Shown here piece after piece: positions 39,693 to 64,000 of a stretch of DNA of 64,000 nt; position 1 is the stretch's first letter; each line of letters starts with the position of its first letter. A program made the translations under genes and the position numbers. The notes beneath the pieces were generated by a model that worked only from the letters and a program-made list of their open reading frames with translations, ran no database searches and was not told the origin of the DNA. The DNA comes from Candidatus Levyibacteriota bacterium (GTDB lineage: Bacteria; Patescibacteriota; Microgenomatia; Levybacterales; GWA1-39-11): NCBI GenBank assembly GCA_039738415.1, contig JBCLLY010000006.1, forward strand, positions 1,814-65,813, read 5' to 3'.

Positions 39693-39851
39693 CCAAGGAA
39701 GAGGTCGCCAGTTCAAATCTGGTCCACCGTTCTAGCATTGGCGGGCAGGCCAAGGTGTACCCTCCTTCGTATCGTTTTGACGAGACTACTGAAGGGCAAG
39801 GAAGTGAGTTGGATTCCCGCACTCGCTCTGATTACAGTTTTATAAGCAGGA

Positions 39852-49341: not shown

Positions 49342-49432
49342 TATTATATAGTACCTGAATTCAATGAAAGTATTCAAGGTTTTATACCTAAGAAAATATA
49401 ATTTAAGTTTATTATTTCGTATAATAGGGGAG

Positions 49433-49894
49433 ATGAGAAAAATTAAAAGAATTCCCGTGACCCGAGAAGGGTACGAAAAATTAGTAAAAGATTTGGTAAG
49501 TTTAAAATCTTCCCGTCCTGAGGCAGTAAATACTTTGTCAGAGGCTCGCAAAATGGGGGATTTATCGGAAAATGGACTTTATTCTGCAGCAAAGATGCGT
49601 TTGCGTGGTATTGACTCCCAAATATTAAGACTGAATATCCAAATAAAACTTGCAGACATTATAGAGGAAAATAAGAGTGGTTTTGTTTCTATTAATTCAA
49701 AAGTTCTTATTTCAGACGGAAAGAAAGAGAGAGTACTGCATATAGTTGGACAATTTGAAGCAGATCCGCTGAATAACAAAATTTCTAGCTCGTCTCCGAT
49801 AGGACGTGGCTTAATCGGAAAAAAGACAGGAGACAGAGTGGGGGTAAATATTCCTTCGGGGAGAATTACATTTGAAATCCTAAAAGTGTTTTAA
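49433..49894 (+). CDS. greA: transcription elongation factor GreA
   Basis: IPVTREGYEKLVKDL...DLSENGLYSAAK. The ATG at 49433 is preferred over the upstream in-frame start. Confidence 0.9.
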   Translation: MRKIKRIPVTREGYEKLVKDLVSLKSSRPEAVNTLSEARKMGDLSENGLYSAAKMRLRGIDSQILRLNIQIKLADIIEENKSGFVSINSKVLISDGKKERVLHIVGQFEADPLNNKISSSSPIGRGLIGKKTGDRVGVNIPSGRITFEILKVF

Positions 49895-49909
49895 TCCTAA
49901 TCACCGTCA
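49889..49909. repeat. 21-nt perfect direct repeat, copy 1 (TTTTAATCCTAATCACCGTCA), overlapping the greA stop
   Basis: Identical to 49990-50010. Confidence 0.9.
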
Positions 49910-49942
49910 AAAATTCATAATGTTTGCATTTAAGGTTAATTT

Positions 49943-49982
49943 AAGGTTCAACCTTCAATAGCCTCAAGCAAGGTTGAACCTT
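49943..49982. terminator. 13-bp-stem hairpin (AAGGTTCAACCTT / AAGGTTGAACCTT) between convergent greA and PBP1A
   Basis: Perfect complementarity with a 14-nt loop. Lies between the two 21-nt repeat copies. Confidence 0.6.
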
Positions 49983-49989
49983 AGCTATC

Positions 49990-50010
49990 TTTTAATCCTA
50001 ATCACCGTCA
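49990..50010. repeat. 21-nt perfect direct repeat, copy 2, overlapping the PBP1A stop and last codons
   Basis: Identical to 49889-49909, 101 bp away. Confidence 0.9.
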
Positions 50011-52262
50011 CCAATTCCTAAGGTAGGAGTTAGCGTGGGAGTAGGAGTTGGGGTGGGAGTCAGGATTGGAGTACTTGTAATTCCAGTTGTGGGAGTTGGT
50101 GTTTGAGGAATTTGTGTTGGACTAGGAGTATTTGTCGGTTGATTGTTGTTATCTTTTTCTTTTTCTTCAGTTTCACTTGGCGTTGGAGTAGGGGTGGGGA
50201 TATTGCAGAGTTTTTTAGGTACCGTCCCTCTTATGAAAAATTCAGTATATGCAGATGAAGTTGCAAATTCTATTTTTAACCCGTCCTCAAAACAAACTTC
50301 TTGCGCAACTACTCCGGGAGGTTGTCTGAAGTTTTCAGTAGGTTTGCCCGCAAGATACGCCTCCATTATTTGCCTCCAGATAGGAGCTGCGCCTAATGCT
50401 CCCGCGACACTTGTCATGGGAGTATTATCATTGTTTCCTATCCAGACGCCGACTGCAATTTGAGGTGTATAGCCAAGAGTAAGTGCATCGCGGTAATTTT
50501 CAGTAGTACCTGTTTTAACAGCCGCGGTTCTTGAAATATTTAGAGCTGTTCCAAATATCTCAGAGCGTATTTTATTATCAGAAAGAATTGAGCTAATAAG
50601 AAATGCCACAGTTGCTGCTATGGCTTGTTTGTTTTTAGTTTTATTACTTAAAATTGTTCTTCCATTCTTATCCATAACTTTTGTAAATAGAGAATAAGTG
50701 TTCCATTCTCCCTCATTCGCAAATGTTGCGTATACATTCGTCATCTCAATTAGAGGAACCTCCGCAGACCCCAAAACAAGCGGAAGACCATAATCTATAT
50801 CATCTTTAAGAGTTGTAATACCAAGATCTTTTGCAACCTCTATGCCTTTTTTAACTCCCAGCATATTCATAACGTGAACCGCCGGGATATTAAGAGAATT
50901 TGCTAAAGCAAAACGTACAAGAACTTTACCTCTGAAATTATTGTCATAATTTGCAGGAGTATAGTTGCCAAATGAAATTTTTTCGTCCTCAAGTTGAGTA
51001 GATGGAGTTATTAGTCTTTGCTCAAGAGCACCTGCATAAATAATAGGTTTAAAAGAAGAGCCGGGCTGGCGGGGGGCAACTGCCATATTGATTCTGCCCG
51101 TAATTTCATCATTCCAGTCATAGCTTCCAACGAGTGCGAGTACTTCGCCGGTTTTTGGGTCTATTGCGACTGCAGCACCGTTGCCTACCTTTGAACCTTT
51201 AAGTCTTTTAACTTGTGCTTTAACAGCGCTTTGAGCTGATTTTTGTAAGCTGAGGTTAAGTGTAGTTTTGACCACTAATCCGCTTCGTGCGACGTGCTGC
51301 TCTCCAAACTCCTTAATCAAAAGGTCTTGAATCATCAAGGCAAAATGTACAGCATCCTCATTTATGTCAACTGTAGTTGGGTCTAGTACTATTTCCTCCT
51401 CTTGTGCCACAATTTTTTCCTCCTCAGTTATAAAACCTTGCTCTTCCATTAATTTTAATATTAGATCCTTTCTCCCTAGCGCTGCTTCAAAATCCCCTGA
51501 AATTGGAGAGTAAAATGAAGGGGCTCTGATAATCCCCGCAAAAAGCGCGCTTTGGGCAAGAGTTAAATCCTTTGCGTCTTTAGAAAAGTATCTTTGGGAA
51601 GCATCCTGAATTCCAAAAGCCCCTTGCCCATAATAGTTTGTGTTTATATATAATTCCAAAATATCGTCTTTTGAATAACGCCTTTCAAGCTCGAGTGCGA
51701 GTACTAGCTCCTGATATTTTCTCAAAAGCCTTCTGTCCGGGGATAGAATCGCATTCTTCATGAGCTGTTGTGAGATAGTAGACCCACCCTGAATTGAGGA
51801 TTGAGAAAGAAAATTTTCACGAATCGCACGGCCAATTCCTCTTATAGAAAAACCCGGGTGGTTGTAAAAATCCCTATCTTCAACTGCAACAAAAGCTTTC
51901 CCGGCGTATTCCGGCAAGTCGTTAAGAGAAATTGAGTTTTTGCTACTACCACCAAATAGTGTAAAGAAAGGTTTATCATTTCTATCAAGTAAAACTACTC
52001 CCTGATTTTTTTTATTTAATATTCTTTCTTTTGAGGACAAATCTCTGACAAAGTAAAGATATGTAGCAATAGGAATTAAAATTATAATTACTAGAGAAAT
52101 AATTATCGCGTATTTTAGAGGCTTCCGCCCTTTTATGATAATGAGCTTTATGTCCTCCCGATTAAGATTGCGCAGCCGCAAGTACTTCTGCTTTATGTAG
52201 GGTTTGTCTATTTTCCGGATGAATTTAACTATTTCCCCAAGTTTATTTTTTATCTTATTCAT
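49998..52262 (-). CDS. bifunctional penicillin-binding protein 1A (GT51 transglycosylase plus transpeptidase) with a Pro/Thr-rich C-terminal tail
   Basis: EDRDFYNHPGF (GT51) and the SSFKP active site. The tail is PTPTPTPSETEEKEKDNNNQPTNTPSPTQIPQTPTPTTG.... Confidence 0.9.
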   Translation of the reverse strand: MNKIKNKLGEIVKFIRKIDKPYIKQKYLRLRNLNREDIKLIIIKGRKPLKYAIIISLVIIILIPIATYLYFVRDLSSKERILNKKNQGVVLLDRNDKPFFTLFGGSSKNSISLNDLPEYAGKAFVAVEDRDFYNHPGFSIRGIGRAIRENFLSQSSIQGGSTISQQLMKNAILSPDRRLLRKYQELVLALELERRYSKDDILELYINTNYYGQGAFGIQDASQRYFSKDAKDLTLAQSALFAGIIRAPSFYSPISGDFEAALGRKDLILKLMEEQGFITEEEKIVAQEEEIVLDPTTVDINEDAVHFALMIQDLLIKEFGEQHVARSGLVVKTTLNLSLQKSAQSAVKAQVKRLKGSKVGNGAAVAIDPKTGEVLALVGSYDWNDEITGRINMAVAPRQPGSSFKPIIYAGALEQRLITPSTQLEDEKISFGNYTPANYDNNFRGKVLVRFALANSLNIPAVHVMNMLGVKKGIEVAKDLGITTLKDDIDYGLPLVLGSAEVPLIEMTNVYATFANEGEWNTYSLFTKVMDKNGRTILSNKTKNKQAIAATVAFLISSILSDNKIRSEIFGTALNISRTAAVKTGTTENYRDALTLGYTPQIAVGVWIGNNDNTPMTSVAGALGAAPIWRQIMEAYLAGKPTENFRQPPGVVAQEVCFEDGLKIEFATSSAYTEFFIRGTVPKKLCNIPTPTPTPSETEEKEKDNNNQPTNTPSPTQIPQTPTPTTGITSTPILTPTPTPTPTLTPTLGIGDGD

Positions 52263-52466
52263 GAGAATGTATATTTTAACATTTTGAGCCTATTCTAGCC
52301 AAAAGTCAAATAAATTTGAATTTATTTGCAATGCTACGATTTGGCACAAAATCCTAAAGTCGGGTTGGAATGAGTTAAAAAAGAAGCCTTTTTCTATAAG
52401 TACCTATTGTCAATCTCAGCTTGCACTGAGCTTGCTCGCCTCGCTGAGTCGAAGCGGGCCAAAGTG

Positions 52467-52540
52467 TGAGCCGACTGGGACTCGAACCCAGAACCAAAAG
52501 CTTAAAAGGCTTTTGCTCTACCAAATTGAGCTATCGGCCC
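52467..52540 (-). tRNA. tRNA-Lys (TTT)
   Basis: Sense strand GGGCCGA-TA-GCTC...GAGC-A-AAAGC-CTTTTAA-GCTTT-TGGTT-CTGGG-TTCGAGT-CCCAG-TCGGCTC-A. No encoded CCA. Confidence 0.9.
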
Positions 52541-52688
52541 GCTCGCAATCGTATTAATATTGAAAATATTAGAAGAGCGTAACTGTAATTTTATCAAAAT
52601 TAGACCTCACACGCAATGAAGTTATTTGACAAAACATTTTATTTTTTTAATACTGTTTATAGTATATAACTGAAAGGAGGTGAATTAC

Positions 52689-53345
52689 ATGCAGGATATA
52701 AATAATACATTAATAACAACACTTAACAGTAGTATCGAGACAATTGTCACTTTTGCTCCTAAATTTGTCCTCGGCTTAATCTTTCTTTTAGTCGGTATTA
52801 TAATTGCCGCTTTCCTAAAACAAATTCTAAATGAACTATTTAGGTTTTTTAAGGTCGAGACTTATTTGGCAAAATATGGAGTCCCTGAATCAAAAGACGG
52901 GGCTCAGTGGAGTACGATAATTGCAGAAATAGCCAGATGGTTTGTGATTGTAGCCTTTCTTATTCCTACCGCAGATGTATGGGGGTTAGGGCGCTTTGCG
53001 TCAGTTCTAGACGGGTTGCTTTCATATTTACCAAATGTATTCGTGGCGGTGTTATTACTGCTTGTTGGTTTTGTAGTTTCTAGACTTGTTCACGATTTGG
53101 TTCTCGCTTCGGTACGTGGACTTTCGAAAGAATCTGCAAAATCTGTTGCACTTGTTGCCAGATATGCAGTAATAATATTTGTGTTGCTAGTAGTTTTAAA
53201 TCAGCTAGGAATAGCAACTGATTTAATAAGAATTTTATTTAGCGGGATAATTGCCATGCTAGCAATAGCAGGAGGACTCGCTTTCGGACTTGGTGGAAAA
53301 GATGCGGCAAAGGAAACAATAGAAAAACTCAGGAAAAGACTTTAA
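52689..53345 (+). CDS. membrane protein with repeated conserved TM-helix units (mechanosensitive-channel-associated TM_helix type)
   Basis: SD GGAGGTG lies 7 nt upstream of the ATG at 52689. Four hydrophobic helices with a repeating pattern. Family call is tentative. Confidence 0.5.
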   Translation: MQDINNTLITTLNSSIETIVTFAPKFVLGLIFLLVGIIIAAFLKQILNELFRFFKVETYLAKYGVPESKDGAQWSTIIAEIARWFVIVAFLIPTADVWGLGRFASVLDGLLSYLPNVFVAVLLLLVGFVVSRLVHDLVLASVRGLSKESAKSVALVARYAVIIFVLLVVLNQLGIATDLIRILFSGIIAMLAIAGGLAFGLGGKDAAKETIEKLRKRL

Positions 53346-53360
53346 AAATTCTTATTTTGG

Positions 53361-53400
53361 AAAACACACCTGGAATAATTTTGGGTGTGTTTTCTTTTTT
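53361..53400 (+). terminator. rho-independent terminator
   Basis: AAAACACACC-13 nt-GGTGTGTTTT followed by CTTTTTT. Confidence 0.8.
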
Positions 53401-53483
53401 AAGCTGTGGGATTGTAGAAAAGAGCTAATTTTAATATAATTGGCTAGATTTAATACTTGGATCTTAGGTCTTAAGTCTTTTTT

Positions 53484-53555
53484 GGCCCGTTCGTCTATCG
53501 GTTAGGACGCTAGACTTTCACTCTGGCAAGGGGGGTTCGACTCCCCCACGGGTCA
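53484..53555 (+). tRNA. tRNA-Glu (TTC)
   Basis: Acceptor GGCCCGT/ACGGGTC, anticodon arm CTAGA-CTTTCAC-TCTGG, T arm GGGGG-TTCGACT-CCCCC. No encoded CCA. Confidence 0.9.
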
Positions 53556-53621
53556 CATTTTAATCAAGGGGAGAAGAAGTTTACCCTGCTGTGCCCGCCT
53601 CTGCAGGGAGCTTGTGCAAGG

Positions 53622-53640
53622 GAGTCCCAGTCGGCTCACA
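53622..53640 (+). repeat. 19-nt copy of the tRNA-Lys 3' end (GAGTCCCAGTCGGCTCACA), att-like and inverted relative to the gene
   Basis: Exact reverse complement of 52465-52483 (T-loop to 3' end of tRNA-Lys plus 2 nt). Marks the left edge of the accessory region. Confidence 0.8.
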
Positions 53641-53711
53641 AATAGGGTTTTGGAGGTTGGATTTCAGAAGCAGATATACAAACTGACTGGCAGGAATGTA
53701 AAAAATGGAAT

Positions 53712-53891
53712 ATGGAAACAGAATCTTTACTTTTAACTGGGATTCCCGGTAAAGAGGGTATAAAAATGACGGAGGAGCAGATGGGCTATTTGAATGATTG
53801 GGATGTATGGCTTGAGGAAATGTGTATTCAGTTAGAGAAAGATAAGTCTCATATTGTAAATGAGTTTGATAGAAGGCAATTTGAAAAATAG
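53712..53891 (+). CDS. small hypothetical protein (59 aa)
   Basis: ORF METESLLLTGIPGKEG...RRQFEK, just below the track cutoff. Followed by a same-length ORF that also starts ME.ES. No SD. Confidence 0.3.
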   Translation: METESLLLTGIPGKEGIKMTEEQMGYLNDWDVWLEEMCIQLEKDKSHIVNEFDRRQFEK

Positions 53892-53897
53892 AGAAAT

Positions 53898-54077
53898 ATG
53901 GAAAGAGAATCTAAAATAACATACGAACAAATAAGTGATAGTGTGCCTATGCTTGCAGAACAAGCCTATCATTTGCATGAAGAAATTGACCTAGACGTTG
54001 AACTTAAAAGAAGGAAAGAACAAGAGGCTTGGGAACGTAGACAATATGGAAATGATATATGTGACTTCCTAATTTAA
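53898..54077 (+). CDS. small hypothetical protein (59 aa)
   Basis: ORF MERESKITYEQISDS...DICDFLI. Its last ~45 bp are duplicated in degenerate form at about 54071-54118. Confidence 0.3.
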   Translation: MERESKITYEQISDSVPMLAEQAYHLHEEIDLDVELKRRKEQEAWERRQYGNDICDFLI

Positions 54078-54434
54078 AAGAAGGAAAGATTATGCGATTT
54101 GGGAGCGTAGACAGTATTAAAAGTGATGCTTTGACTGTACTGTAGGTTCTTTAAAGCCGTCGGAAATCCCGACAAACTGAATTTTCATCCAATTCTCCCT
54201 CCAAAGGCGGGTAGACAAGAACCTTGGAATGAACCATAAATTTGCAAGTTGGCTGTAGATTAATTACTTAAATCCCAATTAATCAAGGTATTTTAAAAGA
54301 CTTAGAGAACAGCGGTGGGCTCAAATACCGCGCCGCATCTAGACATGCTTGGCTTATACGCGAGGGAATATGCCCAGTCTGATTAATTCTTCTTTTCTGA
54401 ATCCTTCCGTGAAATTTGGAGTTACTAAGGATTG

Positions 54435-55073
54435 ATGCATTCTGGCACGGTTTGTATTGCTTTTGGTTCAAATGAGGGTATAATTTCACTTATGGTCGAA
54501 AATTCTATTCATGAAAAAGCAATGCTCCTTATAAATGGGGAGCAAAGTGAGTTTGTAAGTAAAATTGAGGAAATTATTGCAATTTCTAACCTTGTTGGCA
54601 AACAAACTGAAATGGGAAATTGCGTAATGCAATCATTTCTATTAGGTGAACTTTGCTTAAAGCCTGATGTTGCAAAACAGCTCTATCCCGATCTTGGCTT
54701 AGACCAAGCATTGAAAAATACAGGATCCGTGCGTACTAACTTTAACAGTAGAGTTAAGCCACATGGACTTAAAATTGGTCAAGAACATTCTCCGACTACA
54801 TATTTTTATGAACTAATTGAACCAGCGGATAAAGTTAAAAAGAAAATTAGAGAAAAGCCTACGGAACATATACTTTCAATGCAAATGATCGCAGGAGTAA
54901 GTGTTCCACTAATTAGGGACCATAACCATCATTGGGTAATAGCCGAAGCAAACGGGCCAGTTTCTGATGGTAGATGTAAGGGTTGTGGAGAACACCGTGT
55001 ATACCGAAATTCGCTATCTGAGGAACAAATAAATCCCAACAGGAATTTCAATAGGCATTCCCGTCGAGACTAA
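54435..55073 (+). CDS. hypothetical protein with a C-terminal CxxC motif
   Basis: Long ORF. Start is uncertain (ATG at 54435 or 54492). The C-terminus DGRCKGCGEHRVY carries a single CxxC. No family recognised. Confidence 0.45.
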   Translation: MHSGTVCIAFGSNEGIISLMVENSIHEKAMLLINGEQSEFVSKIEEIIAISNLVGKQTEMGNCVMQSFLLGELCLKPDVAKQLYPDLGLDQALKNTGSVRTNFNSRVKPHGLKIGQEHSPTTYFYELIEPADKVKKKIREKPTEHILSMQMIAGVSVPLIRDHNHHWVIAEANGPVSDGRCKGCGEHRVYRNSLSEEQINPNRNFNRHSRRD

Positions 55074-55080
55074 AGGATTT

Positions 55081-55140
55081 TACCTTAAATAGTGCACCTT
55101 ACCCTTGTCAAAAGAGGGGAACAGTCCCCTTATTTGAGTA
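55081..55140 (+). repeat. intergenic repeat family T, copy 1 (27-nt core TACCTTAAATAGTGCACCTTACCCTTG plus hairpin AGGGGA-ACAG-TCCCCT and a T-rich tail)
   Basis: The core is identical to 56972-56998. The second half is similar to 57024-57053. Terminator-like hairpin at 55115-55130. Confidence 0.8.
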
Positions 55141-55286
55141 GCATATCGACTCCATCTTCATTCCTCGCTTAAGGAAATGAATTTAGTGATAAAATTGCAG
55201 ATGTGAGGACTTATCAATCCTCTGGTGAAATTTACCCATTCGGTATTCTAAATATTCAAGATTATTGAATATAAACTAACATACGT

Positions 55287-55796
55287 ATGCAAATAAAATT
55301 AAAAAGACCAACTCTTCCGACTCTATTATTAATTCTAGTTGTCTGTGTCCTTGCGATAATTTCCATATTTCTTTTTGCTGCTAATAAAAAAAATGGGGAT
55401 TGGAAGACTTACATCAATTACCGTTTCAATTATTCAATTAGCTACCCAAAAGATTGGAAAGAAGGCAGAGTAGCAACAAATGGCGACGGTAGAGCATTAT
55501 ATAAAGACAATTCTAATGAAATCTTAGTTTACGCAAGCTATATGCTTTGGTCCTTTTCTCAGCAAGATGCTCCAATTGAACGTAATATATTTACTACAAC
55601 TAGTGGAATAAGAGCAACATCTCTTAAAGAAACGAAGAATGGAAAAGTTAAATATATTGTATTTTTTACACTGAAAAATAAAAAGGATAATAACTTAGAA
55701 ACTCAATACGTTTTTAATGTAAATGTAACTGAAAAGTTTTTTAAAGCTAATGAACAAATTATTATTAAAGTTGCTAAAAGTCTCTCGCTTAATTAA
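55287..55796 (+). CDS. membrane-anchored hypothetical protein
   Basis: N-terminal TM (LPTLLLILVVCVLAIISIFLF) followed by a soluble domain beginning WKTYINYRFNYSISYPKDW. Confidence 0.5.
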   Translation: MQIKLKRPTLPTLLLILVVCVLAIISIFLFAANKKNGDWKTYINYRFNYSISYPKDWKEGRVATNGDGRALYKDNSNEILVYASYMLWSFSQQDAPIERNIFTTTSGIRATSLKETKNGKVKYIVFFTLKNKKDNNLETQYVFNVNVTEKFFKANEQIIIKVAKSLSLN

Positions 55797-55918
55797 TGGA
55801 AATAGATTGTAAACCTGCTTTGACTTAAATAAATAAAATTATAGAAAAAATTATTAAGAGAGTTAAACATGCATATTGCTTTATATATCAAGTGGATTTA
55901 TATATATAATAAAGCTAA

Positions 55919-56824
55919 ATGAGATCAAAAAAACATATTCTTATTATTGTACTGCTTGGACTATTAGTTGTTGCCGGATACCTTATTATTTCAAGAAACA
56001 AACCCTCCAAAATAGTTAAAACTACTCCCCCAATTACTGAAAGTAAATTTGAAGATGTTAAAGCCGATCTGAATGGTGATGGAAATCAGGAGACGCTTCG
56101 CTTGTCGTATACCAACTCAGAAAGGGAACCTGTTGTATCCCTAATTGCTTTAGATAAAAATGGAAAGGAAATAGGCAAGCTTCCAACAAGTATGCCAATT
56201 AAGGTACCTATGCCTAAAAGTGGAAAAGTACACACCCCTGTTAAAAAAGACAAAAATCAATTTGTAAGTTTTGATTTTTCCGTAGGTCCCCATTCTTCTG
56301 AAACAATGTTTTTTGGTCTTTTTCAACTTAAGACTGGTGGTATGGGAGTTTTACCTATATGTCTTACCGACAATGTAAATGGAGCCTCAGATTGCCTATT
56401 TTGGTCAGGAGAGGTTGGAGAACTAGCTGCTAAAGACTTAGACAATGATGGAAACTTAGAAGTTATAGAAATAGTTGATGAATATCCTAAAGATGGTCAA
56501 ATAACTACTGACACAGAAAAGATAATTAATGATGAATTTAAAGATATGGGTCAAGATGCGGTAAGTGGAATGACTAGAATTGCTAAACGCGAGCAGGGCG
56601 ATAGGGGCAATAAGGTTGTTTGGGGAATATATAAATTTAATGGAGAATATTTCAAAGAGCAGACAGGTAAAAATTACGATAGATACTATGACTTGGTAAG
56701 TAAGCACTTGAAGGCAACATATCCCAACTACCCGACAATAATGAAAAGGAATAGTATGAGCAAAGATTCTTTAGACTACAACTTGTCTATGCGACAGTTT
56801 TGGACCCATAGCGGCGGAAATTAG
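55919..56824 (+). CDS. membrane-anchored or secreted hypothetical protein with DxDxDG-type Ca-binding-like motifs
   Basis: N-terminal TM, then DLNGDGNQE and DLDNDGNLEV motifs (FG-GAP/EF-hand-like). Confidence 0.5.
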   Translation: MRSKKHILIIVLLGLLVVAGYLIISRNKPSKIVKTTPPITESKFEDVKADLNGDGNQETLRLSYTNSEREPVVSLIALDKNGKEIGKLPTSMPIKVPMPKSGKVHTPVKKDKNQFVSFDFSVGPHSSETMFFGLFQLKTGGMGVLPICLTDNVNGASDCLFWSGEVGELAAKDLDNDGNLEVIEIVDEYPKDGQITTDTEKIINDEFKDMGQDAVSGMTRIAKREQGDRGNKVVWGIYKFNGEYFKEQTGKNYDRYYDLVSKHLKATYPNYPTIMKRNSMSKDSLDYNLSMRQFWTHSGGN

Positions 56825-56971
56825 ACAACAATCGTAATAACTCAAGAATACCTGATAGCTTCACTTTTTTACTCACAAAAATTACTGCTTTAATTTTCAC
56901 TAGAAGCTCAAATGATTCGCAGAATCTTAAACTTTACCCCAAATACTCCTTGACTTACCTCAAACACTCCT

Positions 56972-57053
56972 TACCTTAAATAGTGCACCTTACCCTTGCA
57001 CTTCGGAGATCTCAGTGTAAACAAAAAGAGGGGCGCAGTCCTTTATGTGAGTA
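56972..57053 (+). repeat. intergenic repeat family T, copy 2 (with a 24-nt internal insertion)
   Basis: 27-nt core identical to copy 1. The tail AAAAGAGGGGCGCAGTCCTTTATGTGAGTA is a degenerate version. Confidence 0.8.
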
Positions 57054-57166
57054 CTTTTGTTCGTTTATTCGAACAATTGGTATAGAAAAGCTATTAATCT
57101 AATGGTTCGATATATTAGAACAATTGTTTTAGGTTTCTAGTTTTAAGTTTTACGTTTATTCTCCAG

Positions 57167-57341
57167 CCTCAGGAGAATACATTTTATTCTATCGTTTGAA
57201 TGGATGGTTTTGTTTAGTCTAATGTTTCGATACATTAGACTGGGTGTTTGAATTTATTTGGGAGTAGAGGTGAGGCCTCTATTCAGTTTATCTCAGGATT
57301 TGGGTTTCATTGGTGAAAAGGTCTCACCTCTACACGGTAAT
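57167..57341 (+). repeat. 175-bp direct repeat R, copy 1 (two internal hairpins)
   Basis: 169 of 175 positions identical to 60428-60602. Hairpin 1 at 57216-57241 (10-bp perfect stem AGTCTAATGT/ACATTAGACT, loop TTCGAT). Hairpin 2 at 57264-57333 (14-bp stem GTAGAGGTGAGGCC/GGTCTCACCTCTAC). Confidence 0.9.
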
Positions 57342-57359
57342 TTGTATTATAATTTTTAT

Positions 57360-57581
57360 ATGCCGATTATATTTTCTGATCACGCAAAACAGCAGTTGAG
57401 AAGAAGGAAAATACCCCAAAAATTAGTAATTGAAACAATTAAAAACTTTGAGGGTAAAGGCGCAAGTTTTAAGGAGCGTAAGTTGCGGCAAAAGACGTTT
57501 GGTGATAAAATATTGGAGGTGGTAACAAAGACCGAAGGATCAAAAGTAACGGTTATTACAGGTTACTATATTAATAAATAA
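57360..57581 (+). CDS. DUF4258-like protein (putative toxin of a two-gene TA-like pair)
   Basis: MPIIFSDHAKQQLRRRKIP... The ATG at 57360 sits 6 nt after TATAAT (57348-57353). The longer track ORF reads through repeat R. Confidence 0.6.
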   Translation: MPIIFSDHAKQQLRRRKIPQKLVIETIKNFEGKGASFKERKLRQKTFGDKILEVVTKTEGSKVTVITGYYINK

Positions 57582-57583
57582 TT

Positions 57584-57784
57584 ATGAAAATGAGATACGA
57601 TAAAAAAGTAGATGCAGTCTACATTGAATTGGCAAAAGGCTTATATGATAGTTCGCGCAAAGTGTCTGATGTGATTGTGGTGGATGAAGATAAAAAGGGA
57701 AAAGTTTTGGGAATAGAAATTTTGGATGCCTCTAAAAATATTAATGCATTTGACCCAAAATCTATATCTGTAGCTACCTCCTAG
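57584..57784 (+). CDS. DUF2283-like protein (putative antitoxin partner)
   Basis: YDKKVDAVYIELAKG...GKVLGIEILDASKNI pattern. Starts 2 nt after the upstream stop. Confidence 0.6.
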   Translation: MKMRYDKKVDAVYIELAKGLYDSSRKVSDVIVVDEDKKGKVLGIEILDASKNINAFDPKSISVATS

Positions 57785-57827
57785 TTTTTTTATTCAAGCC
57801 TTAATTTGTAACGAATACAATCTCAAC

Positions 57828-57887
57828 AAAATTCGCATCCCAGCCTTGACTAGACCGCCGAGTCTAGGCGGGCCAGCTACAGGAAAG
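57828..57887 (+). repeat. junction repeat J, copy 1
   Basis: AAAATTCGCATCCCAGCC-TTGACTAGACCGCCGAGTCTAGGCGGGCCAGCT-ACAGGAAAG. Confidence 0.85.
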
Positions 57888-57935
57888 TATATCTAGTATT
57901 CAATATGAGCGTGCGAGTGTAGTGGTTGCACAGAT

Positions 57936-57959
57936 GTATGATATATCGATATATCATAC
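57936..57959. promoter_or_regulatory. 24-nt perfect palindrome GTATGATATATCGATATATCATAC
   Basis: Exactly self-complementary. Intergenic, about 160 bp upstream of the KilA-N gene. Operator-like. Confidence 0.5.
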
Positions 57960-58067
57960 AGACAAGATGGGTAAATGGGGGGAAGTGAAACTCTTTTACG
58001 TAGAGGTTTTACTTTTATATAAACATAACACGCTGAGGGTTGATGACTAAATTCTAAAAATAGTAAT

Positions 58068-58204
58068 CCAGCCTCAGGAGTGATAATATAAATAAATCAG
58101 ACAAAGCCTTTTAAATTATGAAAAGTAAAAAAATAGAAGTGAAAGGAATTGTAATTGCCACATTTAGCAAAAACGAAAAAGACTATATTTCCCTGACTGA
58201 TATG
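58068..58204 (+). repeat. 137-nt exact duplication, copy 1 (KilA-N upstream region plus first 29 codons)
   Basis: Identical to 62098-62234. Confidence 0.9.
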
Positions 58205-58945
58205 GCAAAGTTTAAATCCTATGATAGTGGAATAGTCATTGCTAATTGGCTGTCAACAAAATACACAATTCAGTTTATGGGAGCTTGGGAACAATTACAT
58301 AATCCGAATTTTAATCTTATTGAATTCCATAAGATTAAAAGTGAAGCTGGATCAAATGGATTTATTGTTTCATCCTCATTTTGGATCAAACAAACTAAGG
58401 CAATTGGAATTATCTCAAGTGCAGGTAGATATGGGGGAACTTATGCCCATAAAGATATTGCTTTTGAGTTTGCAACCTGGCTTTCTCCAGAGTTCAAACT
58501 TTTTCTTATTAAAGAATTCCAAAGACTTAAGGCAGAAGAAAGTGAGCGGCTTGAATTGGGTTGGGATTTGAAAAGAACATTGGCAAAAATTAATTACCGT
58601 ATTCACACAGATGCGATTAAAGAGCATCTCATCCCACCAAAAATTTCTCAAAAATCAACTCAAATCATTTACGCCACTGAGGCAGATGTATTAAATGTAG
58701 CTTTGTTTGGAATAACAGCAAGAATATGGCGTGATCAAAATCCAAAAAGGGAGGGGAACATCCGAGACTATTCTACTGTAGAGCAACTGGTAGTACTCTC
58801 AAACCTTGAAGGAATGAATGCGGAATTTATCCGACAAGGACTATCTCAAAGCGCGCGACTAGTAAGACTTAATATAAATGCAATTTCTCAAATGAAGTCA
58901 CTTCTTGGAAACCCAGCGGTGAAAAAGTTAGAAAAACAAAAATAG
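58118..58945 (+). CDS. KilA-N domain-containing protein
   Basis: ISLTDMAKF...GRYGGTYAHKDIAFEFATWLSPEFKLFLIKEFQRLK, typical of the KilA-N family often found near restriction-modification loci. Confidence 0.8.
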   Translation: MKSKKIEVKGIVIATFSKNEKDYISLTDMAKFKSYDSGIVIANWLSTKYTIQFMGAWEQLHNPNFNLIEFHKIKSEAGSNGFIVSSSFWIKQTKAIGIISSAGRYGGTYAHKDIAFEFATWLSPEFKLFLIKEFQRLKAEESERLELGWDLKRTLAKINYRIHTDAIKEHLIPPKISQKSTQIIYATEADVLNVALFGITARIWRDQNPKREGNIRDYSTVEQLVVLSNLEGMNAEFIRQGLSQSARLVRLNINAISQMKSLLGNPAVKKLEKQK

Positions 58946-58948
58946 TAT

Positions 58949-58997
58949 CTCAGCCTCGACTAGACCGCCGAGTCTAGGCGGGCCAGCCACCGGAAAC
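58949..58997 (+). repeat. junction repeat J, copy 2
   Basis: CTCAGCC-TCGACTAGACCGCCGAGTCTAGGCGGGCCAGCC-ACCGGAAAC. Begins 4 nt after the KilA-N stop. Confidence 0.85.
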
Positions 58998-59006
58998 AGT
59001 TTTAAT

Positions 59007-59042
59007 ACGGAGAAGGTGTACCCCCAAATCACGGAGAAGGTG
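59007..59042 (+). promoter_or_regulatory. 12-nt perfect direct repeat ACGGAGAAGGTG x2 (24-nt period) upstream of a promoter
   Basis: Copies at 59007-59018 and 59031-59042. Possible regulator-binding sites. Confidence 0.4.
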
Positions 59043-59065
59043 AAATATCCGTCTTATACAAAGTG

Positions 59066-59093
59066 TTGAAATAATCTTAACTCATAGTATAAT
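59066..59093 (+). promoter_or_regulatory. sigma70-type promoter TTGAAA-N16-TATAAT driving a leaderless transcript of the 231-aa ORF
   Basis: -35 at 59066-59071, -10 at 59088-59093. The ATG at 59099 is 5 nt after the -10 hexamer. Confidence 0.6.
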
Positions 59094-59098
59094 GCGGT

Positions 59099-59794
59099 AT
59101 GAGTAATTTTAGAGAGGAAATGGACAAAGCAAGAAGGGCTGCTGAAGAAGCAAGTAGAAATAATCAAAAAAAAGTTGAAAAGTCAGAGTTGGATGTCAAT
59201 TCATGGGGATATCTCTGGAAAAAAAAGGAATTGCAAAAAGACTATCAGGGGATATATATAGAAAATGTTATAGTGCCAGTCATAGCAGAGGTGAGGCAAG
59301 TTTTAAACGAACAAAGAAAGGGAGATGAATGGTCAAGCAAAAGAGTGCAAGACCATGTTGACTTTAGAATCAACTGGCCAGGGGGTGACGGTGCTGAAGG
59401 GGCTGACCCACATACACAACACTATCATGAAATATTTGATGGCGTATTACTTACACAAGTACAAAAAACTGGACTGTTACGTAGACCAGTTGTACTACAA
59501 ATATTTTCCGGCTTTACTCAAGATGTACGGGAAGGCAGTGATATTTCACATACCGTTTTAATTAGGGCTGCATTAAGTTCTGATAGAAATAGATGTGCTG
59601 TTGAGCTAGGACAAAATCCAATTGATAGCAGTTATTATTGGATTCCGGGAAATAATGCTTGGATTCATCAAGTAGAACATAGTATTGAAAATATAATATC
59701 ACCATCCTCAGAAGTGGCTTCTAATGAGATGAGTAGACTACGTTCTCATCTTTCATCCATTGTTGTTTCTCTCCAAGGAAAAGGAAATATGTAG
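59099..59794 (+). CDS. hypothetical protein (231 aa), no recognised family
   Basis: Long ORF with a charged coiled-coil-like N-terminus. Locally more GC-rich than its surroundings. Confidence 0.5.
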   Translation: MSNFREEMDKARRAAEEASRNNQKKVEKSELDVNSWGYLWKKKELQKDYQGIYIENVIVPVIAEVRQVLNEQRKGDEWSSKRVQDHVDFRINWPGGDGAEGADPHTQHYHEIFDGVLLTQVQKTGLLRRPVVLQIFSGFTQDVREGSDISHTVLIRAALSSDRNRCAVELGQNPIDSSYYWIPGNNAWIHQVEHSIENIISPSSEVASNEMSRLRSHLSSIVVSLQGKGNM

Positions 59795-59812
59795 ATGGAG
59801 TATGTATAAATG

Positions 59813-59870
59813 AATTCGCATACCAGCCTCGACTAGACCGTCGAGTCTAGGCGGGCCAGCCACCGGAAAT
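59813..59870 (+). repeat. junction repeat J, copy 3
   Basis: AATTCGCATACCAGCC-TCGACTAGACCGTCGAGTCTAGGCGGGCCAGCC-ACCGGAAAT. Confidence 0.85.
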
Positions 59871-60061
59871 TTGTCCAGTTTGATCTAGTTGTTAATAGTT
59901 GACACTACAAATATAGTGGTTTAACATAATTTTGGATACTACATAGCAGCGGAATAGGAGAAGGAGATATGGGAAGAGTTTTTACATTTGAAATCACAGC
60001 ACCAAGGACGCACAAAAGCGACGGAGGTGTTTTTTTGTGGTTATTCTTATGAAAGGAGGTG

Positions 60062-60337
60062 ATGAAAATGAAAGAAAAAAAACAAAGTCAGGAAGTCCAA
60101 ATTAATTTCGATTTTGGTGCAGAACCAATTTTGTATACTGACTCAATTTTTATTACATCAAATGAAGATGGAATAATTATTAACTTCAGTCAACCTCAAG
60201 CCATTCCTACACAACAGAAAGTTGTAGCAAGAATAGGTATGAGTCGGGAACATGCCAAAAAGTTCATTCAAAAAATTAGCAATTTATTTGCTATTACTGA
60301 AAATAATAAGCAAATTGGTCAAAAGTCCCAGAATTAA
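60062..60337 (+). CDS. DUF3467-like protein
   Basis: ILYTDSIFITSNEDGIIINFSQ...KVVARIGMSREHAKKFIQKISNL resembles the DUF3467 pattern. SD AAAGGAGGTG upstream. Confidence 0.55.
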   Translation: MKMKEKKQSQEVQINFDFGAEPILYTDSIFITSNEDGIIINFSQPQAIPTQQKVVARIGMSREHAKKFIQKISNLFAITENNKQIGQKSQN

Positions 60338-60342
60338 CCTAG

Positions 60343-60370
60343 AGCCGGCTGGGAGAAATCCCACTCGGCT
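60343..60370 (+). other. hairpin AGCCG-gct-GGGA-GAAA-TCCC-act-CGGCT with a GNRA tetraloop
   Basis: Follows the DUF3467 stop. Its 5' arm contains GGCTGGGA, the reverse complement of the junction-motif core TCCCAGCC. Confidence 0.6.
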
Positions 60371-60427
60371 TGCTCCATTTCTGATCATAACAAAAAAATA
60401 AGGAAATTAAAATAATTAGGAAACTGA

Positions 60428-60602
60428 CCTCAAGAGAATACATTTTATTCAATCGTTTGAATGGATGGTTTTGTTTAGTCTAATGTTTCGATACATTAGA
60501 CTGGGTGTTTGAATTTATTTAGGAGTAGAGGCGAGACCACTATTCAGTTTATCTCAGGATTTGGGTTTCATTGGTGAAAAGGTCTCACCTCTACACGGTA
60601 AT
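60428..60602 (+). repeat. 175-bp direct repeat R, copy 2
   Basis: Six mismatches relative to 57167-57341. Same orientation, same length. Confidence 0.9.
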
Positions 60603-60644
60603 ATAGTGCTATGTGGATGGCCGAGGTTTTGGTTTCTTTAGATT

Positions 60645-61502
60645 TTAACTCCAGCTTTCCCCAAGATATTGAACAAGTAATTCGCGCAGTCGTTCTCCGC
60701 CAATAAGTTCAACATTGTTAACTTTCGCTAGCTGAATGGCTTCTGGAGTGAAATATGAGGTAGTAACAACCATAGCGCGCGTGCAATTATAAAGTTTTAA
60801 TGCAGTACTAGCTTCTTGCACCGCAGAATTACCAACGGATCCTGTATAGCACTTTGCTTGCACAACAACCCTTTCTGAGCCCATATTCACAACTAAATCA
60901 CAACCCTGATCACCAGTTTTACCTGTTTTCATAGCAGAGTATCCCATCGCTTCATATAATTTACATAAAAGAACTTCAAATTCAGTACCCGTTAATTGGC
61001 TAGTTGTATGAGGTATGCTTGCGATGCTGTCGCGGACAAATTTATCCTCTTTATTATAAATGTAATGCTTAAGTAGCAAGCTAATATCTTTATAGTCGTC
61101 CATAGAGAGTTTGACACCTTTGTCATGTAGCGCTTTTCTGAAGATTTCTAGCTGCTGCCATGTGAACGAGAACTCTCCGTCTTTCCATAAATCTTTTCCT
61201 GCCTTTTTTTGATAGCCAAGACTGTTTATAAAGTTTTTTATATTTTCATCAGCTCCAGCTTGTTTAACTGAATCAAGCAAATCTGATATTTTCTTCTTTT
61301 GTCTCTTTGATTGAAAATCATGCCATGCATAAATTCCAATCACTATGAGAACAAGTGCTATTGCGCCACCCCAAAGCAAGACAAAAAAAAGGGAGTTATT
61401 GGTTTTAAAAAGAGATACTAAATAAAAAGTAGCCAATACAAAAATAAAAAATATTATTTTTGCTAATGTGTAATCATTATTCCTATATCTCCCTCGAGCC
61501 AT
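60645..61502 (-). CDS. membrane-anchored restriction endonuclease-like protein (Mrr_cat-type PD-(D/E)xK domain)
   Basis: The ATG at 61500-61502 (MARGRYRNNDY) is preferred. Two N-terminal TM helices. C-terminus FEVLLCKLYEAMGY...GDQGCDLVV...VVQAKCY... Confidence 0.7.
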   Translation of the reverse strand: MARGRYRNNDYTLAKIIFFIFVLATFYLVSLFKTNNSLFFVLLWGGAIALVLIVIGIYAWHDFQSKRQKKKISDLLDSVKQAGADENIKNFINSLGYQKKAGKDLWKDGEFSFTWQQLEIFRKALHDKGVKLSMDDYKDISLLLKHYIYNKEDKFVRDSIASIPHTTSQLTGTEFEVLLCKLYEAMGYSAMKTGKTGDQGCDLVVNMGSERVVVQAKCYTGSVGNSAVQEASTALKLYNCTRAMVVTTSYFTPEAIQLAKVNNVELIGGERLRELLVQYLGESWS

Positions 61503-61646
61503 ATAATAATAGTAGCACATTTTTCTTAAGGACTGAAAGGAGCAATTAACAAAATTAAATGGGAATTCGCAAAATTCGCATCCCAGAATCAGGAGTGGTA
61601 GAATAGAGTTCATCGAATTAATGTTTAATAAGAAAATTAAAAATAT

Positions 61647-62090
61647 ATGGAAAAAATCAATCTATTCGACCTAAAAACACTACTCAAGGGAAGGGATTGG
61701 GCAGACTTGACGAAGCAGGAACGGTTGGAAATCTCCCAAAAAATATTAGACCTGATTTCACAGGATTAGCCAAGTTTGTAAACGAAAATCCTCAAGGATT
61801 TACTATCAACATAAATGGAGTACCAGCCACTAAGGGTTTTGTGGTATCACCTTACAAGGGTAGGGAAACTATTCTTGAAATAGTAGATGAGAATTCTATC
61901 AGAGATTTTATATCAAAAAACATAGATTTATTACAACAAGAAGGTAATTTTTTTGGAGGATGGAAAAATTCAAAGGGAAAATTCTAGATATTATGGAAGG
62001 GCAGGTAAAATATTATCCCAACGGGAAAATTTTTGATACCAATGACCCTAACCACAACAGAAGCTTGGAAATTTTAATTAGAAGCAAAAT
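61647..62090 (+). pseudogene. fragmented gene: three consecutive ORF pieces in different frames
   Basis: Pieces are MEKINLFDLKTLLKGRDWADLTKQERLEISQKILDLISQD*, then ...FVNENPQGFTININGVPATKGFVVSPYKGRE...FFGGWKNSKGKF*, then MEGQVKYYPNGKIFDTNDPNHN.... Consistent with frameshift and nonsense decay. Confidence 0.35.
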
Positions 62091-62097
62091 TCGCATC

Positions 62098-62234
62098 CCA
62101 GCCTCAGGAGTGATAATATAAATAAATCAGACAAAGCCTTTTAAATTATGAAAAGTAAAAAAATAGAAGTGAAAGGAATTGTAATTGCCACATTTAGCAA
62201 AAACGAAAAAGACTATATTTCCCTGACTGATATG
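62098..62234 (+). repeat. 137-nt exact duplication, copy 2
   Basis: Identical to 58068-58204. Confidence 0.9.
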
Positions 62235-62490
62235 CTGCGGGCTAAAGATGGTGATTTCTTTATTTCTGATTGGTTGAGAAATAGGAATACAGTTGAATTC
62301 ATTGGTATATGGGAAAAGTTGAATAATCCGAATTTTAATTATGGCGAATTTGCCATAATTAAAAGTCAGGTAGGATTAAACAGCTACAAGATTAGTGTTA
62401 AAGAGTGGGTCGTGTAATACTTAATCTTACACAATCTCTCAAATGAAGTCACTTATCGGGAACCCAGCAGTGAAAAAGTTAGAAAACCGG
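62148..62490 (+). pseudogene. KilA-N gene remnant (mosaic with an internal deletion)
   Basis: The first 29 codons are identical to the 58118 copy. These are followed by a divergent KilA-N N-domain (WLRNRNTVEFIGIWEKLNNPNF), a premature stop at 62415-62417, then the out-of-frame C-terminal tail (QMKSLIGNPAVKKLE). Confidence 0.7.
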
Positions 62491-62548
62491 AATTCGTAAT
62501 CCAGCCTCGACTAGACCGTCGAGTCTAGGCGGGCCAGCCTCAGGAAAG
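62491..62548 (+). repeat. junction repeat J, copy 4
   Basis: AATTCGTAATCCAGCC-TCGACTAGACCGTCGAGTCTAGGCGGGCCAGCC-TCAGGAAAG. Lies immediately upstream of hsdR. Confidence 0.85.
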
Positions 62549-62582
62549 TGGAATTTAAGTTCAAGAAGTGGTAGAATAAATC

Positions 62583-64000
62583 ATGATATTTAACGAAAAC
62601 ACTAGGGTAAAGATTCCTGCATTGATTCATTTGACACGACTTGGCTATCTTTATTTTTCATTGAAAGATCAAAATTACGAAGTCGATCCAGACACAAATA
62701 TTATTACGAACGTACTAACTAGAAAGATCAAAGAACTTAATCCTGATGCTACGGATGAATCTGTTATCCAAGAATTGCAGAATATTAAAGAAGAACTAAA
62801 TTATGATGATTTAGGAAGAGCGTTTTATAAGCGTTTAATTGGAGATGGGGATGGGAGCCTAAAACTTATAGAGTGGGATAAGTTTGGTAATAATTTGTTT
62901 CATGTGACTTCAGAGTTAACGTGCAAGAGTGGGGAAGATGAATTCCGGCCCGATATTACAATCTTTATTAATGGACTACCCCTCTCATTTATAGAGGTAA
63001 AGAAGCCCAATAACCCAGAAGGTATTAAGGCTGAGCGAGATCGTATAAATGTTCGTTTCAAAAATGACAAATTTCGACGATTTATCAATGCCACACAGCT
63101 GATTGTTTTCTCCAATAACATGGAATACGACGATACCGACACTAACAAACTTCAAGGTGCATTTTATGCAACCACTGCAAAAAACACGGATACAAAATTT
63201 AACAACTTACGTGAGCAAAAAAGGTCTGAATTTATAGATGAGATTAAAGCCATAGATGAGCGTATAGAGGATTTTATTCTCTTAGATAATAACTGCAGGA
63301 TTATTAAGCATTCTCCTGAATTCTTGTCTAACAAAGATATAGACACCCCGACCAATCGAATTTTATCGTCGTTGTTTAGTATGTTCAGGCTAAGAGATCT
63401 GCTTAAATATGGGATCTGTTATGTCGACGAAGTTGAGGAAAATACAGGCAAAGTAACTATAGAAAAACAAGTCATGAGGTATCCTCAGTTTTTTGCCACC
63501 AAAGCAATTAAGACTAAGCTTGACGAAGGTATGAAAAGGGGTGTGATTTGGCACACTCAGGGTTCAGGTAAAACAGCTTTATCCTTTTACAACGTTCATT
63601 CACTTAAAGATTATTTTGCCAAAAATGGAGTGATTCCTAAGTTCTATTTTGTAGTTGATCGTCTTGATCTTGCTACACAAGCAAAAGAAGAATTTAGCAA
63701 GCGTGGAATGACAACAAATACTATTGATAGCAAGGAAGCATTACTTGAAGACTTTAAAAATAATACCTCAACGGAAGGTATTACTGTTTTAAATATCCAC
63801 AAATTTCGAGAAGATACTATGGCACTTGATGACAGTGGATACAATATAAATTTACAACGCATATTCTTCATTGACGAAGCTCATCGTAGTTATGATCCAA
63901 AGGGTTCTTTCTTGGCAAATCTTTACAGCTCAGACAAAAATTCCATAAAAATAGCTCTTACAGGCACACCACTAATTATCTATAAAGATCATGATGATCG
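62583..64000 (+). CDS. hsdR: type I restriction enzyme R subunit (N-terminal part, continues beyond window)
   Basis: Not in the ORF track because there is no stop within the window. Nuclease motif FRPDITIFINGLPLSFIEVKKP, helicase Walker A WHTQGSGKT and DEAH box FIDEAHRS. Confidence 0.9.
   Translation, partial: MIFNENTRVKIPALIHLTRLGYLYFSLKDQNYEVDPDTNIITNVLTRKIKELNPDATDESVIQELQNIKEELNYDDLGRAFYKRLIGDGDGSLKLIEWDKFGNNLFHVTSELTCKSGEDEFRPDITIFINGLPLSFIEVKKPNNPEGIKAERDRINVRFKNDKFRRFINATQLIVFSNNMEYDDTDTNKLQGAFYATTAKNTDTKFNNLREQKRSEFIDEIKAIDERIEDFILLDNNCRIIKHSPEFLSNKDIDTPTNRILSSLFSMFRLRDLLKYGICYVDEVEENTGKVTIEKQVMRYPQFFATKAIKTKLDEGMKRGVIWHTQGSGKTALSFYNVHSLKDYFAKNGVIPKFYFVVDRLDLATQAKEEFSKRGMTTNTIDSKEALLEDFKNNTSTEGITVLNIHKFREDTMALDDSGYNINLQRIFFIDEAHRSYDPKGSFLANLYSSDKNSIKIALTGTPLIIYKDHDD

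Follow-up and report, generated by a model that had tools for sequence, protein, structure and literature searches.

A structured intergenic repeat in two direct copies within a recombining accessory island of a Candidatus Levyibacteriota genome

Introduction

Near the right end of a 64,000-nt stretch of DNA from Candidatus Levyibacteriota bacterium (GenBank assembly GCA_039738415.1, contig JBCLLY010000006.1, positions 1,814 to 65,813 of the forward strand; hereafter the window), five genes are bracketed by two nearly identical sequences of 175 nt. The two copies have the same orientation, and each contains two long hairpins. What is this repeat, here called R, and why does it occur twice? A first-pass annotation, made from the letters alone, had named three candidate roles: a structured non-coding RNA, the ends of a mobile or excisable module, or a recombination hotspot. 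The reading that we favour, and to which we give about an even chance, takes R for a non-coding intergenic spacer, copied once within a repeat-rich, recombining accessory island, and not an autonomous element. In kind, R belongs with known sequences, the structured intergenic repeats of recombining accessory islands.

Results

R is non-coding and independent of the adjacent toxin-antitoxin genes

Copy 1 (R1) lies at 57167-57341 and copy 2 (R2) at 60428-60602, both on the + strand. Their alignment bore out the 169 identities in 175 positions given in the first-pass annotation (96.6%), and the homology breaks off sharply at both ends. The six differences fall between 57172 and 57278 in R1 (60433 and 60539 in R2). 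Four of them are clustered at 57260-57278, within and just 5' of the 5' arm of the second hairpin. At five of the six positions R2 has A and R1 another base; the remaining difference is T versus C. The sequence CCTCA(G/A)GAG, described earlier as preceding each copy, is actually the first 9 nt of the repeat itself and forms the right-hand half of a longer motif found across the island, CCAGCCTCAGGAG, which we call the junction. The junction in which R1 starts is perfect (57163-57175, + strand, running over the left end of this copy); that of R2 is degenerate (CTGACCTCAAGAG, 60424-60436, + strand). The left flanks are unlike (tccag versus actga); 60397-60423, to the left of R2, resembles 61627-61653, the 5' region of an apparently decaying gene, at 81%.

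On the right, R1 ends, as had been noted, just before the -10 box of a DUF4258 gene; the distance to this box, TATAAT (57348-57353), is 7 nt, and the ATG of the gene is at 57360. R2 sits between the convergent DUF3467 and Mrr genes. It has no + strand gene downstream, the next gene being Mrr on the minus strand, and R is therefore not simply a 5' untranslated region. An open reading frame (ORF) at 57258-57581 runs through R1, and the suspicion that its N-terminal part is not real proved justified: its homologues are 65-79 aa long, one weak 114-aa match excepted, and their DNA similarity starts at 57348. A coding role of R was considered and rejected. In the frame of this ORF three of the four clustered differences are silent, yet R2 reads TTA where R1 has the TTG start, and the homologues begin at 57360.

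R as a leader of the DUF4258/DUF2283 toxin-antitoxin (TA) pair (57348-57784, + strand; coding part 57360-57784) was likewise ruled out. TA loci in three other genomes (L006, L007 and L014) align with the window at 74-77% nucleotide identity from 57348 on, and their upstream sequences are unrelated to R; the one named protein match is from Levybacteria. As the homology begins 7 nt past the end of R1 in all three, R is independent of the TA module.

Hairpin 1 is a 26-nt palindrome, AGTCTAATGT-TTCGAT-ACATTAGACT, assigned to neither strand, at 57216-57241 in R1 and 60477-60502 in R2. It was found in both copies as first described, where zero matches are expected by chance, and so were the flanking TTTGAAT repeats (57195-57201 and 57247-57253). 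With G.U pairs the hairpin of R1 reaches 57211-57246 (15 pairs) and is followed by a T-rich tail, TTTGAATTTATTT; a terminator consensus scan picks the extended hairpin and its tail in both copies. The stem is AT-rich, with three G-C pairs only, and the tail is interrupted. Hairpin 2 (57264-57334 in R1, 60525-60595 in R2, + strand) had been described as a 14-bp stem around 42 nt. The 14-nt arms stand (57264-57277 and 57321-57334). The enclosed stretch, which includes an inner stem-loop, is 43 nt long; in R1 one pair of the stem is G.U, and in R2 the stem contains a single C.A mismatch. The two hairpins (AGTCTAATGT and GTAGAGGTGAGGCC) are unrelated in sequence. As a separate observation, the + strand of the island is enriched in CTCAGGA, which also occurs in the apical part of hairpin 2.

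Recent gene conversion in the island around R

The first 53,500 nt of the window encode housekeeping functions (FtsW, ParB, glycosyltransferases, CTP synthase, RuvABC, a P-type ATPase, GreA and a penicillin-binding protein) and contain no long repeats. All long repeat families of the window fall between 53.6 and 64 kb, in an accessory island that starts just past tRNA-Glu (53484-53556).

A sister assembly, GCA_039731645.1 (L005), aligns to 47360-58463 of the window (11.1 kb) at 99.93% identity and contains R1 without a single difference. All eight differences between the two strains lie in 58108-58198, and none in the rest of the 11 kb; we estimate the chance of such clustering at about 2e-14. 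The differences are confined to a tract at which the window holds two identical sequences. K1 (58068-58204, + strand), which comprises a junction, a promoter and the 5' end of the first KilA-N gene (58118-58945), matches K2 (62098-62234), at the truncated second KilA-N copy, at 137 of 137 positions. K1 of the sister strain (L005 10709-10846) differs there. This coincidence indicates recent gene conversion in the KilA-N tract, after the two strains had split; collapse of the two copies during assembly seems less likely. R1 and R2 differ by 3.4%, so the duplication of R must be much older than the strain split. The earlier suggestion of a recombination hotspot receives indirect support: the island recombines, as the KilA-N tract indicates, and no deletion product of R1 and R2 was seen.

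A palindrome shared with Curtissbacteria

Conservation in relatives proved partial: hairpin 1 is kept, hairpin 2 and the rest of R are not. The palindrome, in the form AGTCTAATGT-WTCGAW-ACATTAGACT, also occurs in the Curtissbacteria loci L002-L004, L009 and L012 (L009 1456-1481 and 1954-1979; L002 3630-3655; L003 6361-6386; L004 1021-1046). The Candidatus Curtissbacteria metagenome-assembled genome (MAG) JACPKK01 has three identical copies, AAGTCTAATGTATCGATACATTAGACTAA, each between co-directional genes. Two of these reach into the end of the ORF upstream, and in L003 and L004 the palindrome encodes its terminal codons, SNVSIH*. From the palindromes of this MAG and the Levybacteria protein match, the genome of the window looks Curtissbacteria-like, that of a tiny groundwater-type member of the Patescibacteria. 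On the metagenome contig Ga0210057_1021410 (same locus as Ga0066639_10020931), two palindromes bracket a Trp_repressor-family gene of 147 aa (PF01371, E 5e-7) that lies between tsf and rseP. The third, degenerate copy that had been noted upstream of R1 was borne out at 57096-57121, on neither strand in particular, with 20 of 26 positions matching. Taken with its flank, as 57092-57123, this copy is similar to the palindrome that immediately precedes the Trp-repressor-family gene in L009.

The centre of the palindrome, WTCGAW, is nearly invariant across genomes, and we infer that it suits a palindrome recognised by a protein better than a free RNA loop. Most probably, the palindrome serves a dimeric regulator as its binding site. 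A Trp-repressor/YerC-like protein may be that regulator, being the only candidate seen, with AGTCTAATGTWTCGAWACATTAGACT as its putative operator sequence. The resemblance to the operators of autoregulated TrpR/YerC-family helix-turn-helix repressors lies in the near-perfect 26-bp palindrome, its few intergenic copies per genome and the two copies around a PF01371 gene. R departs from such operators in that the window contains no regulator gene, the nearest promoter lies 120 nt downstream of the palindrome in R and R2 has no gene downstream. The longest perfect palindrome of the window is a different one, TGTATGATATATCGATATATCATACA, at 57935-57960, in a spacer of 181 nt that holds no gene and precedes KilA-N. 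Its centre is TATCGATA, as in hairpin 1 of the Curtissbacteria MAG; the hairpin 1 copies of the window have TTTCGATA.

Searches for R beyond its two copies

No further copy of R was found in the 64-kb window or in 11 related loci. A covariance model of R, run over the window and these loci, recovered R1, R2 and the R1 of the sister strain only; it found no homologue of hairpin 2 in any related locus compared, and no match in the gene-less spacer (57887-58067). BLAST searches with R against phage and plasmid collections gave no match, nor did scans of viral contigs with hairpin 1, hairpin 2 and the core of D2, a second repeat family of the island described below. Exact hairpin 1, used as a seed to scan 185,579 species genomes and the Joint Genome Institute (JGI) metagenomes, brought up only the palindrome of about 27-33 nt and no full-length R. 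Matches to the hairpin 1 pattern with other loops, in Clostridium and other taxa at a GC content of 29-65%, are by our estimate about as many as expected by chance. R is also absent from the vicinity of Mrr homologues in other genomes.

A possible small RNA gene

The alternative that keeps most of its ground, while still being unlikely, is that R is a gene for a small structured RNA in two copies, read from the + strand, with hairpin 2 as its functional body. Transcription would start from a weak promoter at the junction of R1 (TTTACG-18 nt-GAGAAT) or from TTGAAT-16 nt-TCTAAT, which overlaps hairpin 1. The + strand folds at -60.3 kcal/mol (z -4.6 against shuffled sequences), in a structure that has a closing stem and numerous G.U pairs, the latter specific to this strand. 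The place of R2, with no + strand gene after it, also speaks for this reading. However, the minus strand is equally exceptional against its shuffles (-42.3 kcal/mol, z -5.1), and the + strand is rich in G and T, so that G.U pairs come free.

The comparison of the two copies is similarly divided. Three differences fall at paired positions; two, changes from G.U to A-U, keep the pair, and the third (U-A to C.A) breaks the stem in R2. Between these two 97%-identical copies there are no compensatory pairs, and thus no covariation. The candidate promoter is degenerate in R2. The Rfam check that had been proposed for the 175-bp unit was made with Rfam 15 on the window, R and the island, at gathering and at permissive thresholds: it matched tRNAs only, and the best other matches had E values of at least 0.3, far below the cut-offs. 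The lack of a hairpin 2 homologue in the loci compared points the same way. Antisense matches to R elsewhere in the window do not exceed 12 nt.

Junction motifs, D2 and a possible cassette system

The junction in which each R copy starts recurs in the island at 58068 and 62098 and, in variant form, at 61583 and 62534. It is related to D2, a GC-rich intergenic repeat of 62 nt with four + strand copies (57825-57886, 58935-58996, 59808-59869 and 62486-62547), each just past a stop codon. The junction AATTCGCATCCCAGCCTCAGGAG is a short form of D2, lacking the 33 nt between the direct repeats CCAGCCTC and CCAGCC(A/T)C; such short forms stand at 57163, 58068, 61583 and 62098. Immediately 3' of the short form, a TGnTAnAAT box is found at both KilA-N copies and at the ORF after the Mrr gene, and at the HsdR-like gene the box comes after the fourth D2 copy. 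From this arrangement, the junction may be a promoter spacer reused at several cassettes, or else a cassette-exchange site. D2 itself has no significant fold (z about -1), and its units are direct repeats. We considered a dif/Xer-type site for D2, given a core that forms an imperfect 11-6-11 inverted repeat (9/11), and did not adopt it, in view of the absence of a significant fold and of any known likeness to the dif consensus sequences.

A bolder reading would make the whole island an undescribed cassette-shuffling system of the candidate phyla radiation (CPR). Its exchange site would be the junction/D2 sequence (AATTCGCATCCCAGCCTC ... CAGGA), the 26-bp palindrome would act as a recognition element, and R would be a structured cassette without a gene, a new small RNA or a protein-binding platform, moved along with the neighbouring cassettes. 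We regard this as improbable. Like integron attC arrays and the dif modules of Acinetobacter, the island has small, mostly co-oriented accessory genes spaced by D2 or its short form; unlike them, it has no integrase among the window ORFs scanned and no R''/R' cores, and D2 is direct and has no significant fold. An attC core pair (RYYYAAC / GTTRRRY, 40-130 nt apart) is absent from both strands of 53500-64000, and the right side of R has no integron-type site.

Less likely origins: ends of a mobile module, inserted elements and others

It had also been proposed that the R copies are the ends of a mobile or excisable module of the HUH/IS200 kind. In its general form, R1 and R2 would be attL- and attR-like ends of an excisable 3.4-kb module, with the recombinase encoded elsewhere or an HUH/IS200-type enzyme acting on the hairpins. 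We consider this quite improbable. It would fit the direct copies around accessory genes, the start of each copy in a motif that recurs at cassette borders and the Xer-like integrase found near Mrr homologues in another genome. It does not fit the gene content. Pfam was run on the ORFs of the island and on 20 other ORFs of the window. None of the five genes between the copies (57342-60427) has a recombinase, transposase or HUH domain, and the 20 other ORFs have no recombinase, transposase, tyrosine recombinase or Y1 HUH (TnpA) domain; a 169-aa ORF at 55287-55796, like the HsdR-like gene outside the Pfam scan, had no PHROGs match. Nor does the repeat look like an att core, with its 175 nt, 96.6% identity and clustered differences. 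The right ends have no junction motif, and the mutually unrelated hairpins are unlike the left and right ends of IS200/IS605 elements. The best match between the termini of R is 10/20, so that terminal inverted repeats are lacking; no flank is duplicated, and those on the left are unlike.

Much the same evidence bears on R as a non-autonomous miniature element, inserted twice, after the manner of miniature inverted-repeat transposable elements (MITEs) or palindrome-associated transposable elements (PATEs). A length of about 175 bp, two hairpins and sharp boundaries would suit such an element, and R shares with IS200/IS605 and PATE sequences its subterminal hairpins and its lack of terminal inverted repeats and target duplication. 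It differs from them in its dissimilar hairpins, the missing TnpA and TnpB, the absence of a common left-flank target and the restriction to two local copies. Both copies lie in one 3.4-kb neighbourhood, no parental insertion sequence is present in the window, no copy turned up in the collections searched via hairpin 1, and the left boundary is inside a pre-existing motif of the island. Independent insertion of this kind is very unlikely.

We rate equally low the chance that one R copy is an artefact of metagenome assembly. The source is a MAG, the sister assembly breaks at 58463, inside the island, and the 137-nt identity of K1 and K2 could in principle reflect the collapse of two copies; against this, the R copies differ at six specific positions and in their flanks, and R1 was assembled identically in an independent assembly. 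The A-specific differences (probability about 0.006 one-sided, about 0.02 allowing for the choice of strand and copy, by our estimate) prompted us to consider R2 and R1 as template and variable repeat of a diversity-generating retroelement, which is hardly credible and effectively refuted within the window: no window ORF of at least 150 aa has the reverse transcriptase motif [YF]xDD, R1 is not part of any credible coding sequence, the sixth difference is T versus C, and AT-biased mutation explains the G-to-A changes.

Genes and further repeats of the island

The island encodes small ORFs that belong to no family, two predicted membrane-anchored or secreted proteins, DUF4258/DUF2283, KilA-N, an ORFan, DUF3467, a minus-strand Mrr protein, the truncated second KilA-N and an HsdR-like protein. 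The ORFan (59099-59794, 231 aa) has a good promoter, TTGAAA-16 nt-TATAAT, and a leaderless start; a search of 5.8 billion proteins gave no homologue, and neither Pfam nor PHROGs matched it. The Mrr-family restriction endonuclease gene (60645-61502, minus strand) has its stop codon 42 nt beyond R2, where the duplication has its right breakpoint. Its homologues elsewhere stand beside type I restriction genes, and the gene that runs off the window from 62584 probably encodes, as read by eye, the N-terminal part of a type I restriction R subunit (HsdR). No near-identical entry outside the contig of the window was found for the ORFan and Mrr proteins. At the TA, ORFan and HsdR-like genes the start codon is 5-7 nt past the -10 box, which suggests leaderless mRNAs. 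What looks like one frameshifted, decaying gene lies at 61649-62121, where three short ORFs overlap in different frames between Mrr and the second KilA-N. The literature yielded no paper that treats DUF4258 together with DUF2283, and on integrons of Patescibacteria nothing of relevance.

Exactly at the start of the island, the 3' end of tRNA-Lys (gene at 52466-52540) is repeated over 18 nt in inverted orientation (53622-53639), a copy that may be the remnant of an old integration site plus an inversion. A 28-nt exact repeat, TTACCTTAAATAGTGCACCTTACCCTTG, occurs at 55080-55107 and 56971-56998, in each case 3' of a secreted-protein gene and with a similar G-rich hairpin after it, which makes this another shared intergenic element of the island. 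Outside the island, 39694-39740 is a tRNA-like 3' half with a T-arm, GCCAGTTCAAATCTGGT, directly after tRNA-Gly(ccc), called neither by ARAGORN nor by Rfam.

Discussion

In the reading of R as a spacer copied within a recombining island, each copy begins in the recurrent junction CCAGCCTCAGGAG, which elsewhere stands directly before an extended -10 box, and has two structured parts, the conserved 26-bp palindrome as a putative operator and a private 71-nt hairpin. The palindrome, extended by G.U pairs and followed by its T-rich tail, could also stop read-through transcription. R would then act as a transcriptional boundary and operator, R1 ahead of the leaderless TA promoter and R2 between two convergent genes. 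As a side effect, the 3.26-kb segment between the copies would be open to deletion or duplication by ordinary homologous recombination.

Among known systems, the dispersed recombining intergenic repeats of accessory and defence islands offer the closest parallels to this reading: here too, two direct non-coding copies flank accessory genes near tRNA genes, and a second repeat pair in the same island carries a strain-specific conversion tract. Unlike those repeats, R is unusually structured, with two long hairpins, and carries a palindrome conserved across genomes. With intrinsic (Rho-independent) terminators R shares the extended hairpin 1 followed by TTTGAATTTATTT, and differs in its AT-rich stem and interrupted tail.

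Several points weigh against the reading. Simply being a spacer does not account for the long, almost perfect stem of hairpin 2. A Trp-repressor-like gene was seen with the palindrome at one locus (L009), and the window holds no such gene. The palindromes of the Curtissbacteria MAG JACPKK01 have no T tail, so that a terminator role may be confined to R. No strain with a single R was seen, the sister contig stopping at 58463, before R2. Finally, the search for copies in the genome itself spanned about 64 kb, so that copies elsewhere are possible.

If the spacer reading is true, R is an ordinary recombination by-product of a variable island, and its value is mostly descriptive. R or the island would amount to a new system only if the junction and D2 prove to be true recombination sites, or R an expressed RNA. 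The junction/D2 family and the conserved palindrome are more promising leads than R itself. The repeat-rich structure accounts for the assembly breaks in the island, and very recent gene conversion between dispersed repeats is documented here in a CPR genome. The conserved 26-bp palindrome of Curtissbacteria-like genomes may be a putative operator of a Trp-repressor/YerC-like protein, a family for which we know of no defined binding site or regulon in these organisms.

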